Part shown: positions 26,033 through 27,884 of the stretch, in pieces
Position numbering within the stretch: the first letter of the stretch is position 1
How the letters are laid out: each line of letters begins with the position of its first letter
Sequence record: NC_019769.1
DNA: 38,964 bases
DNA from: Escherichia phage HK542
Direction: 5' to 3' (one strand)
The notes under the pieces: generated by a model
The model's input: only the letters and a program-made list of their open reading frames with translations
Database searches by the model: none
What the model was told of the DNA's origin: nothing
Position numbers and translations under genes: made by a program

Positions 26033-26060
26033 GCAAAGAAAACCCGGCGCTGAGGCCGGG
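26033..26060 (-). terminator. tIMM-like intrinsic terminator closing the cI operon
   Basis: cccggc-gctgag-gccggg hairpin with a downstream T-run on the minus strand, 8 nt past the stop at 26069. Confidence 0.7.
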
Positions 26061-26068
26061 TTAATGCG

Positions 26069-26689
26069 TTAATGCTGGGGAGTGATTTTTTTGTTGTCTG
26101 TTGGCTGGGTATTTTGTGGCGGCGCTTGCAAAGTGGAAGGCTGTTGCAAAGGTGCGTGGTCTGACTTTAAAGCTGATACCAGCCCGGGAATCGCAACTAT
26201 TACAGCGATAATGACACTAAAAATGGCTAATCGTATAGAAATACCCGACTGAACACCACTAATTGCGGTATTAACCCCTGTTATTTGTCCTTGAATTCCT
26301 TCGAATCTCCCATTAATTGCTTTTATATCGCCAGCAGCGCTATCCATCTTTCCATCGATCTTGGACGATAGAGAGTTTATGGCTGCATTAAGTGATGCAA
26401 ATTGGACATTAACGCTTTCACGAGATAGAGCCATGTCAGCCCTAATGGAAGAAGCAATAGACTCCATCTCTGCTTTATTAGCAGCTAAGCGAGCATCAAG
26501 TTCCTCTCTGCTGATCGTTCCCACTTCTTCCTCCGTTTGTGGCGGTTTTATGTAATTATTTTGCACCTTGGTGGGAGAATTATCAAATTCAGCCTCAAAA
26601 TAGGAACCGCCAACAACCTTCAACCTCCGGCTTTCAGATATGTTGGTGTCTTGCTTTCCATGATTATTTAAATTGCTGTCGTCACTCAT
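26069..26689 (-). CDS. Rex-position protein B: coiled-coil-like protein with C-terminal TM anchor
   Basis: 206 aa; ATGA overlap with upstream gene; Ala/Ser/Ile-rich heptad-like region then one TM helix (ISIRLAIFSVIIAVIVAIPGLVSAL) and a Pro/Gln-rich tail. Confidence 0.6.
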   Translation of the reverse strand: MSDDSNLNNHGKQDTNISESRRLKVVGGSYFEAEFDNSPTKVQNNYIKPPQTEEEVGTISREELDARLAANKAEMESIASSIRADMALSRESVNVQFASLNAAINSLSSKIDGKMDSAAGDIKAINGRFEGIQGQITGVNTAISGVQSGISIRLAIFSVIIAVIVAIPGLVSALKSDHAPLQQPSTLQAPPQNTQPTDNKKITPQH

Positions 26690-27120
26690 AATAGCTCTAC
26701 GGTGAAAAATGATTCATTTTTATGAAGTTCATTTTTAGGGTCTTCATTATCCTGCAATATCCCTATAACACTATACAGCCCTTTAGCTGGGACCCTAATT
26801 TCTTTCAATGTTACTATTACCTGTCCGCCAACCCCTGTTTCAAAATGGCTATCTTTCGTATCGATGAAAAGTGAAACTGATTCCGAAGAGCCGTCAGGGA
26901 ATTGAATTTCCTCACCTTTTTTTATAATTAGGTGCGCGGGGATTACCATAATACCCAAATTATATCTTGAATTTGGTTTCAACCCGATCATACCAACCCT
27001 GAAATCAATTGATAGCCGCGCAGGAAATTCATTGCATGTAAAATTAAGCGTCGGTTGGTTGGGTTCTTCGCTGCTATCAAATGGGGTTATAAAAGATATT
27101 CTTTCTAAATTAAGTGCCAT
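26686..27120 (-). CDS. Rex-position protein A: soluble 144-aa protein
   Basis: ATG 27120 with AGGAG RBS 7 nt upstream; the track start at 27174 is a GTG overlapping the cI stop; no TM segment; AT-rich. Confidence 0.6.
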   Translation of the reverse strand: MALNLERISFITPFDSSEEPNQPTLNFTCNEFPARLSIDFRVGMIGLKPNSRYNLGIMVIPAHLIIKKGEEIQFPDGSSESVSLFIDTKDSHFETGVGGQVIVTLKEIRVPAKGLYSVIGILQDNEDPKNELHKNESFFTVELL

Positions 27121-27170
27121 AAATTCTCCTGCATCGCTGTATGCTCTACGAGCATCTCGGCGACTTATCA

Positions 27171-27884
27171 TCACCCAAACGTCTCTTCAGGCCACTGACT
27201 AGCGATAACTTTCCCCACAACGGAACAACTCTCATTGCATGGGATCATTGGGTATTGTGGGTTTAGTGGCTGTAGAAACACCTGACCGCTATCCCTGATC
27301 AGTTTCTTGAAGGTAAATTCATCACCCCCAAGTCTGGCTATGCAGAAATCACCTGGCTCAACAGCCTGCTCAGGGTCAACGAGAATTAACATTCCGTCAG
27401 GAAAGCTTGGCTTGGAGCCTGTTGGTGCGGTCATGGAATTACCTTCAACCTCAAGCCAGAATGCAGAATCACTGGCTTTTTTGGTTGTGCTTACCCATCT
27501 CTCCGCATCACCTTTGGTAAAGGTTCTAAGCTCAGGTGAGAACATCCCTGCCTGAACATGAGAAAAAACAGGGTACTCATACTCACTTCTAAGTGACGGC
27601 TGCATACTAACCGCTTCATACATCTCGTAGATTTCTCTGGCGATTGAAGGGCTAAATTCTTCAACGCTAACTTTGAGAATTTTTGCAAGCAATGCGGCGT
27701 TATAAGCATTTAATGCATTGATGCCATTAAATAAAGCACCAACGCCTGACTGCCCCATCCCCATCTTGTCTGCGACAGATTCCTGGGGTAAGCCAAGTTC
27801 ATTTTTCTTTTTTTCATAAATTGCTTTAAGGCGACGTGCGTCCTCAAGCTGCTCTTGTGTTAATGGTTTCTTTTTTGCGCTCAT
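27171..27884 (-). CDS. cI: CI repressor
   Basis: 237 aa; from memory, differs from lambda CI at about two N-terminal residues (MSAKKK, LGLPQES); contains the Ala-Gly autocleavage region and Ser/Lys peptidase domain. Confidence 0.96.

Follow-up and report, generated by a model that had tools for sequence, protein, structure and literature searches.

Described systems downstream of phage repressors

Rex is the oldest known phage-exclusion system, and its mechanism is still poorly understood. In lambda, rexA and rexB lie between the repressor gene cI and the terminator tIMM, within a cI-N interval that is a variable locus with RexAB and BstA (PMC8585504) and whose recognition as a mosaic hotspot is credited by citing papers to Degnan et al. 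(2007, Mol Microbiol 64:232). HigBAC is a further validated system at the same repressor-downstream locus (bioRxiv 10.1101/2024.02.24.581848), and "Rex-like" systems, each made up of one cytosolic and one membrane protein, are validated for Pseudomonas and for actinophages, most of them with no evident sequence similarity to lambda Rex (PMC12894663). Here we analyzed this locus in Escherichia phage HK542 (NC_019769.1; the whole stretch of 38,964 nucleotides is called the window), an HK97-like siphophage genome with a lambda immunity region and with structural genes 99.6% identical to those of phage ECP1. Two genes, orfA and orfB, encoding proteins A and B, form a natural and exact replacement of rexAB by unrelated genes, with the full lambda immunity circuit kept. 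The reading that we favor, tentatively and at a little under an even chance, is that this cassette may be a Rex-like system of two components, expressed in lysogens, for exclusion or abortive infection.

The cassette resembles lambda RexAB in filling the slot from the cI stop codon to the rexB stop and tIMM, with identical junctions and on the same strand, and in consisting of two coupled genes for one cytosolic and one membrane protein. The proteins differ, however. RexA is a DNA-binding protein of 279 amino acids (aa) whereas A is a predicted beta-sandwich of 144 aa, and RexB (144 aa) has four transmembrane (TM) segments whereas B (206 aa) appears to be a single-pass, tail-anchored coiled coil. 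An earlier reading of the bare letters (hereafter the original prediction) had held that A and B look like neither Rex protein, and hhalign bore this out with probabilities below 1% (A against RexA 0.3%, B against RexA 0.5%, B against RexB 0.2%). The B profile likewise gave a probability of 0.1% against lambda SieB. In a further difference from lambda, no PLIT-like internal promoter stood out in a scan of the cassette. Judged by profile comparison, the cassette is not a member of RexAB, SieB or any PADLOC family, and what it has in common with Rex is limited to the locus, the logic of the transcript and the layout of one cytosolic plus one membrane protein.

A cytosolic and a membrane protein near a repressor are also found in Sbash gp30/31, CarolAnn gp44/43, Butters gp30/31 and P. 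putida RexABpp. These Rex-like systems are grouped by architecture and phenotype and not by homology (PMC12894663); their phenotypes have been demonstrated and RexApp resembles RexA by HHpred, whereas the cassette is a candidate. It also differs from them in a membrane partner predicted to be single-pass and a cytosolic partner that is swappable among unrelated folds. BstA and HigBAC lie directly downstream of a repressor, as the cassette does, and presumably share its promoter, but BstA consists of one large cytosolic protein, accompanied by an anti-BstA DNA element, and HigBAC combines toxin, antitoxin and chaperone. In searches of PADLOC and Pfam, A and B resembled the proteins of neither system. 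B itself shares a helical or coiled-coil region and a single C-terminal TM anchor with ElaB, YqjD and YgaM of E. coli, with PBSX XhlA and with the archaeal SlaB stalk. It differs from these proteins in that an upstream partner is obligatory and in being confined to prophages.

Anatomy of the locus and its junctions with lambda

The original prediction had proposed that cI is followed by two coupled open reading frames (ORFs) and a hairpin terminator, as in lambda cI-rexA-rexB-tIMM, and all of these elements were found where it had placed them (Table 1). Alignment with lambda showed 99.2% identity rightwards from window position 27170, the final base of the cI stop (lambda 37226), over lambda 37226-38300 and through OR and cro. 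Leftwards of this point no lambda similarity was detected until position 26063, where it returns at lambda 35827 (TAACCCGGCC; TAACCCGGCCTCAGCGCCGGGTTTTC is the rexB stop plus tIMM), so that the breakpoints at the cI stop and at the rexB stop and terminator were as predicted. Between them, 1,106 bp stand in place of the 1,398 bp that hold rexA and rexB in lambda. The insert is AT-rich, again as predicted, with a GC content of 41.0% against 50.9% for the window and 40.9% for lambda rexAB, a composition typical of morons. The terminator itself has 31 nt identical to lambda 35797-35827 and a stem of 8 bp, 6 of them GC, at 26062..26041 that precedes the T-run in a terminator scan; on the alignment, tIMM is the right-hand recombination joint of the cassette.

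Table 1. Features of the HK542 immunity region in window coordinates
Feature	Position	Strand	Basis
cI repressor, 237 aa, lambda immunity	27171..27884	-	ORF list; annotated cI in identical HK542 record
cI-orfA spacer, 50 nt, within mobile cassette	27121..27170	-	sequence; AGGAG ribosome-binding site at 27130-27126
orfA, 144 aa, ATG 27120 to TGA 26686	26686..27120	-	ORF list and sequence
orfB, 206 aa, ATG 26689 to TAA 26069	26069..26689	-	ORF list and sequence
tIMM intrinsic terminator: rexB stop TAA, hairpin, T-run	26031..26063	-	scan; Timm in HK542 annotation
OR1-OR3 with PRM (27919..27891, -) and PR	27891..27958	.	feature table of 100%-identical HK542 record EF120458
OL1-OL3 and PL; downstream boundary of the accessory interval, outside the cassette	25815..25877	-	HK542 features

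The start codon of orfB overlaps the orfA stop as ATGA (26689-26686), which points to translational coupling; an alternative GTG start for orfA at 27174 would give 162 aa. Since the stretch from the cI stop to tIMM carries both genes on the strand of cI, their co-transcription with cI is expected. The terminator scan found no terminator between cI and tIMM, and cI, orfA and orfB should share a transcript from PRM or PRE in lysogens. Operators and promoters were mapped from EF120458 (window position = 28592 minus locus position), and a promoter scan detected a PR-like site at 27932-27960 and a promoter-like site at OL/PL (25843..25815). Two further candidates were rejected: a hairpin in the cI-orfA spacer was not significantly stable (z = -1.6), and a promoter-like site inside orfB (26586..26558) was at chance level, with 3 such sites found against 4.8 expected.

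A conserved membrane protein with exchangeable upstream partners

Homologs of B formed 67 clusters at 90% identity, all in Enterobacterales (Escherichia, Klebsiella, Enterobacter, Citrobacter, Cedecea, Leclercia, Salmonella, Yersinia, Pantoea, Pectobacterium, Xenorhabdus and Morganella). We inspected 14 distinct contexts individually and 40 full-length IMG/VR loci by script, giving 54 in total; a scan of genome contigs, in a collection with one genome per species, returned 2 loci. In all 40 IMG/VR loci and all 14 other contexts, B was directly preceded by a single small ORF on the same strand, which either overlapped it or ended within about 20 nt of it. Because homologs of both proteins are conserved across genera (63–79% identity for A, 34–63% for B), we regard orfA and orfB as real genes.

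The partners of B fell into at least four groups unrelated by sequence in BLAST and hidden Markov model (HMM) comparisons. Group I is the A family (38% identity in Cedecea, 31% in K. oxytoca, HMM E 1.6e-12 in Xenorhabdus). Group IIa comprises proteins of 92–97 aa from Yersinia and Leclercia, and group IIb proteins of 98–101 aa from Pectobacterium, C. koseri and other Enterobacteriaceae. Group III, from Enterobacter and Morganella, has 109–120 aa and a CxxC...CxxC pattern resembling a Cys4 zinc ribbon, and a singleton of 149 aa occurs in Salmonella. Groups II and III gave no match to PADLOC. The core of B, from a SREEL..NKAE motif through the TM helix, was conserved across all partner groups. 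The segment before this core ranged from 29 to 110 residues, was alike only among proteins with group I partners and was longer with group II; such a variable N-terminus would be compatible with a partner-specific docking segment.

One downstream protein with unrelated upstream partners is also what promiscuous antitoxins show, and a small variable gene tightly coupled to a conserved downstream gene would suit a type II-like toxin-antitoxin (TA) pair. The cassette might then be a TA-like, addiction or other lysogen-fitness module unrelated to phages, in which B would be a membrane toxin or a stress-related protein (compare ElaB, YqjD and YgaM), its partner would neutralize or regulate it, and the benefit would lie in prophage maintenance or host physiology. 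That the pair stays intact away from repressors (see below) fits this. However, no TA family was matched, B has no DUF883 match, and the cassette is found only in prophages, at positions of lysogenic-conversion or defense cargo. Many TA systems are in addition defense systems, so that this explanation overlaps with the exclusion reading. We consider a TA-like, addiction or other lysogen-fitness role unlikely, though by no means negligible.

Association of the pair with prophage repressors

In a synteny survey of the contexts of B, a same-strand prophage repressor lay 1–3 genes upstream of the pair in 37 of the 40 IMG/VR loci and in 11 of the 14 other contexts (about 90%). The survey placed the B family behind repressors of at least six types, including lambda cI, S24 repressors of 212–253 aa and short Rac-type helix-turn-helix repressors, which face ydaS/ydaT. 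The 1.14-kb unit of the window was itself found after three different genes, namely lambda cI, the gene for an S24 repressor of 215 aa and a DUF3024 gene. In E. coli 2013C-3342 it has the left boundary of the window behind another upstream gene, with the match running from query base 2. We conclude that the cassette is a moron: it is a discrete mobile unit with conserved boundaries, carried on several backbones, of atypical GC content and with tIMM. These comparative data strengthen the idea of a lysogen-expressed accessory module.

The 215-aa S24 repressor (loci L040, L043 and L044; ORF 1872-2519) has an N-terminal half unlike that of cI and the same ...QWPEETFG end at the cassette junction, and this shared end suggests that the recombination joint falls within the 3'-terminal part of the repressor gene. 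In 12 IMG/VR loci (L031-L037, L039, L041, L042, L045 and L047) and in E. coli 2013C-3342 (L023, 2642-2983), repressor and cassette are separated by a DUF3024 gene, which matches the PADLOC candidate PDC-S43 (E 7e-42). There, the cargo is a block of three genes (DUF3024, A and B), and the repressor before it is a different one, of LexA type. In locus L063, a 160-aa predicted membrane protein of unknown function (1535-2017) lies between an S24 repressor and the partner-B pair.

RexA reportedly influences the lysis-lysogeny switch through CI. A cassette that exactly replaces rexAB and is expected to be co-transcribed with cI could, in the same way, tune the repressor circuit. However, repressors of at least six unrelated types precede the pair, 6 of the 54 contexts place it nowhere near one, and this variety argues against a repressor-specific interaction; we judge a modulator of the switch to be highly improbable.

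In the six contexts away from repressors the pair was intact throughout. It follows the tape-measure gene in Xenorhabdus and Morganella, and in Yersinia-like elements it lies beside tail genes or dinI. Since it is intact in all contexts and mostly found behind repressors, we regard it as an autonomous moron that prefers the repressor-downstream slot. The Morganella pair (L028, 2631-3693; partner group III) and the Xenorhabdus pair (L017, 2855-3935; partner group I) lie between the tape-measure and Dit/baseplate genes, on the same strand as the tail genes, in tail modules that are myovirus- or tailocin-like.

Protein B

Residues 1-60 of B were assigned to a disordered, variable N-terminus and residues 61-148 to a heptad coiled coil; a TM helix follows at about 152-174, and the short C-terminal tail (175-206) is rich in Pro and Gln. 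The AlphaFold2 (AF2) model shows disorder over residues 1-60 apart from a tiny hairpin at 23-31, a long helix at 61-139, a helix at 150-174 and a disordered tail; being a single long helix with a predicted template modeling score (pTM) of 0.23, it was set aside for fold searches. Residues 111-150, approximately, read as the heptads IDGKMDS AAGDIKA INGRFEG IQGQITG VNTAISG VQSGISI, with Ile or Val at the 4-3-spaced core positions a and d, and indels among homologs are of exactly seven residues. The sole hydrophobic segment spans residues 154-172 (19 residues, mean Kyte-Doolittle hydropathy 2.7) and ends 34 residues from the C-terminus. All 23 aligned homologs likewise have exactly one strongly hydrophobic segment, 33–47 residues from the C-terminus.

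The heptads, the seven-residue indels and the single C-terminal hydrophobic segment indicate that B is a tail-anchored and probably oligomeric coiled-coil protein of the inner membrane, in keeping with the coiled coil and single C-terminal TM helix that had been predicted for a 206-aa orfB starting in the ATGA overlap. Ile at both core positions makes a parallel oligomer probable. From the lack of a signal sequence we infer an N-in (cytoplasmic) topology. In most homologs the C-terminal tail has a conserved motif with the consensus QPIIIQVP; the window copy has a degenerate form of it (PSTLQAP).

This placement bears on a second explanation, a superinfection exclusion that is not abortive, in which B (with A as accessory) would block siphophage genome entry at the inner membrane. 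Its periplasmic tail could interact with a host transporter or with the injection apparatus, as do HK97 gp15, P22 SieA and T4 Imm. An inner-membrane location and a short extracytoplasmic motif conserved in most homologs suit such a block, as does the expected expression in lysogens. The Xenorhabdus and Morganella pairs, which directly follow the tape-measure gene, suit it too, the HK97 exclusion gene gp15 being a moron within the tail gene region. Against it, the predictions place about 150 of the 206 residues of B, and A as a whole, in the cytoplasm, and the motif is degenerate in the very copy studied here. Known injection blockers are moreover single genes, whereas here a cytosolic partner is both obligatory and swappable. 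An entry block of this kind is in our view distinctly unlikely.

In database searches B corresponded to PHROG 5820, of unknown function. Pfam gave no family-level match to DUF883 or XhlA, and PADLOC gave only LmuB (E 0.013, 12 bits). A match to Baculo_PEP_C (PF04513) at 21.4 bits and E 2.8e-4 was below the gathering threshold of 38 and was rejected; faint precomputed matches to this family in B homologs reflect coiled-coil composition. We also rejected the NCBIfam model SlaB (E 9e-4; 18 bits, cut-off 700), whose sub-threshold match is explained by similar architecture. Matches to MakE, and to SmhB in the PDB, were sub-threshold coiled-coil noise and were not taken as homology.

Protein A

The partner in the window, A, is modeled as a small, soluble, cytoplasmic beta-sandwich of seven strands resembling immunoglobulin and fibronectin type III domains (Ig/FnIII). 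The AF2 model is all-beta, with a predicted local distance difference test score (pLDDT) of 70.7 and a pTM of 0.65. The 144-aa ORF from ATG 27120 and its AGGAG site were confirmed, and the solubility that the original prediction had assigned to its product follows from a highest 19-residue hydropathy of 1.0. A gave no match in Pfam, NCBIfam or PADLOC and corresponds to PHROG 5893, of unknown function. A profile search of 1.84 billion representatives found only 23 relatives, nearly all of 136–153 aa, and the only invariant residues of the family are structural. The original prediction would have been contradicted by clear homology of the two proteins to ordinary structural or metabolic proteins; profile searches with both returned none, yielding PHROGs of unknown function and sub-threshold coiled-coil noise. 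A 4194-aa repeat protein (P0041) matched A over 22 stretches (E 9e-43 overall) through a short motif (…LPASLSIDAGTGLITG…) at A residues 18-63, approximately. We took this as an Ig-like repeat signature and rejected the protein as an ortholog.

The roles of the two proteins could also be reversed, as in mycobacteriophage Butters gp30/gp31, with A antiviral or toxic and B sequestering it until infection. There is precedent for such an arrangement (PMC12894663), and the variable N-terminus of B resembles a docking segment. However, A is a plain beta-sandwich by its model, with no catalytic signature, and the conservation of B beside a variable A is the opposite of what would be expected if A were the common effector. 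Only a small chance can be given to this reversal.

Weighing the exclusion reading

The two-component exclusion reading is the best supported because there is precedent at the locus and because a conserved membrane subunit is tightly coupled to a variable cytosolic partner. The original prediction of an exclusion module gained from the anatomy, the locus logic and the comparative linkage to repressors and to the PDC-S43-like DUF3024 gene; its suggestion of a sensor and a membrane effector is an analogy with Rex. As we picture it, the prophage would express this autonomous, horizontally mobile moron alongside its repressor. The coiled coil of B would form a cytoplasmic oligomer, probably parallel, with the single C-terminal helix spanning the inner membrane, and A, as a binding module, would probably dock on the variable N-terminal 30-110 residues of B. 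The swappable partner would recognize a cue from a superinfecting phage, or otherwise control B, and B would then perturb the inner membrane so that the superinfecting phage is excluded or its infection aborted.

Several observations weigh against this. Six of the 54 contexts lie away from repressors, and a variable upstream gene with a conserved downstream one is also a TA pattern. Neither protein matched a Pfam, NCBIfam or PADLOC family above threshold (PADLOC-DB v2.0.0). The model of A has only moderate confidence, as its pLDDT shows, and rests on 9 sequences; a check of conservation and model recognized no enzyme, ligand-binding or nucleic-acid-binding motif in A. Outside group I, the N-terminus of B covaries only weakly with partner type. 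Finally, one Lys or Arg lies on each side of the TM helix of B, so that the positive-inside rule leaves its topology undecided; the helix is hydrophobic throughout and lacks polar residues that could line a pore, and each chain has just one, so that a channel is not obvious.

A broader form of the exclusion reading is possible but doubtful. According to it, B would found an Enterobacterales-wide family of prophage tail-anchored coiled-coil membrane effectors with interchangeable, structurally unrelated small cytosolic sensors (beta-sandwich, proteins of about 95 aa, Cys4 zinc ribbon), a Rex-analogous abortive-infection platform whose specificity would change when the partner and the N-terminal docking segment of B that fits it are swapped together. 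Should the cassette prove to exclude phages, it would represent a new defense family with a conserved single-pass membrane subunit and swappable sensors, and would give insight into how cytosolic sensing is coupled to membrane effectors. The exact replacement of rexAB, in a phage that is cultivable and in use as of 2026, makes for a tractable isogenic comparison.

Prior records and distribution

The cassette is 100% identical to the immunity-region records of HK542 (GenBank EF120458) and HK244 (EF120457) from 2007, which citing papers attribute to Degnan et al. (2007). In the HK542 record the pair carries the names HK542c105 and c104, both given as hypothetical proteins, and the hairpin is annotated Timm. 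As it was deposited then, the bare replacement of rexAB is not new, and the idea of a defense hotspot is likewise established. What is new is a recurrent family, absent from catalogs and swapping its partners, around a tail-anchored coiled-coil protein, so that the repressor-downstream slot of Enterobacterales prophages hosts a recurrent module missed by current defense catalogs. In the literature searched (full text and the DefensePredictor supplements) we found no functional study of orfA or orfB, and no exclusion, toxicity, membrane depolarization or A-B interaction for the cassette.

Among 50,697 phage records only two, HK542 and HK244, encode A or B, and the IMG/VR copy of the window is contig IMGVR_UViG_2602041809_000001. 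The cassette was present in 49 of 5426 complete E. coli genomes at 95–100% identity, always chromosomal and always in single copy, and differences within E. coli were too few for the ratio of nonsynonymous to synonymous substitution rates (dN/dS) to be informative. All database names for A and B are "hypothetical protein".

Other genes of the window

Directly left of N, window 24672-25295 (-) encodes 207 aa from ATG (HK542c102, "hypothetical") with a full-length Nmad5 domain (nucleotide modification associated domain 5; Pfam E 3e-72). This gene lies roughly at the position of sieB/ral in lambda and had no PADLOC match. The recombination module is unlike that of lambda, with an ERF-family recombinase at 23415-24050 (-; Pfam E 2.5e-44). 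The replication module differs as well: in place of lambda O/P, window 28765-31081 (+) holds a gene whose 296-aa product matched nothing significantly in Pfam and, after it, an ORF of 483 aa resembling a DnaB helicase on inspection by eye. The cII of the window matches Pfam Phage_CII (E 3.6e-42).

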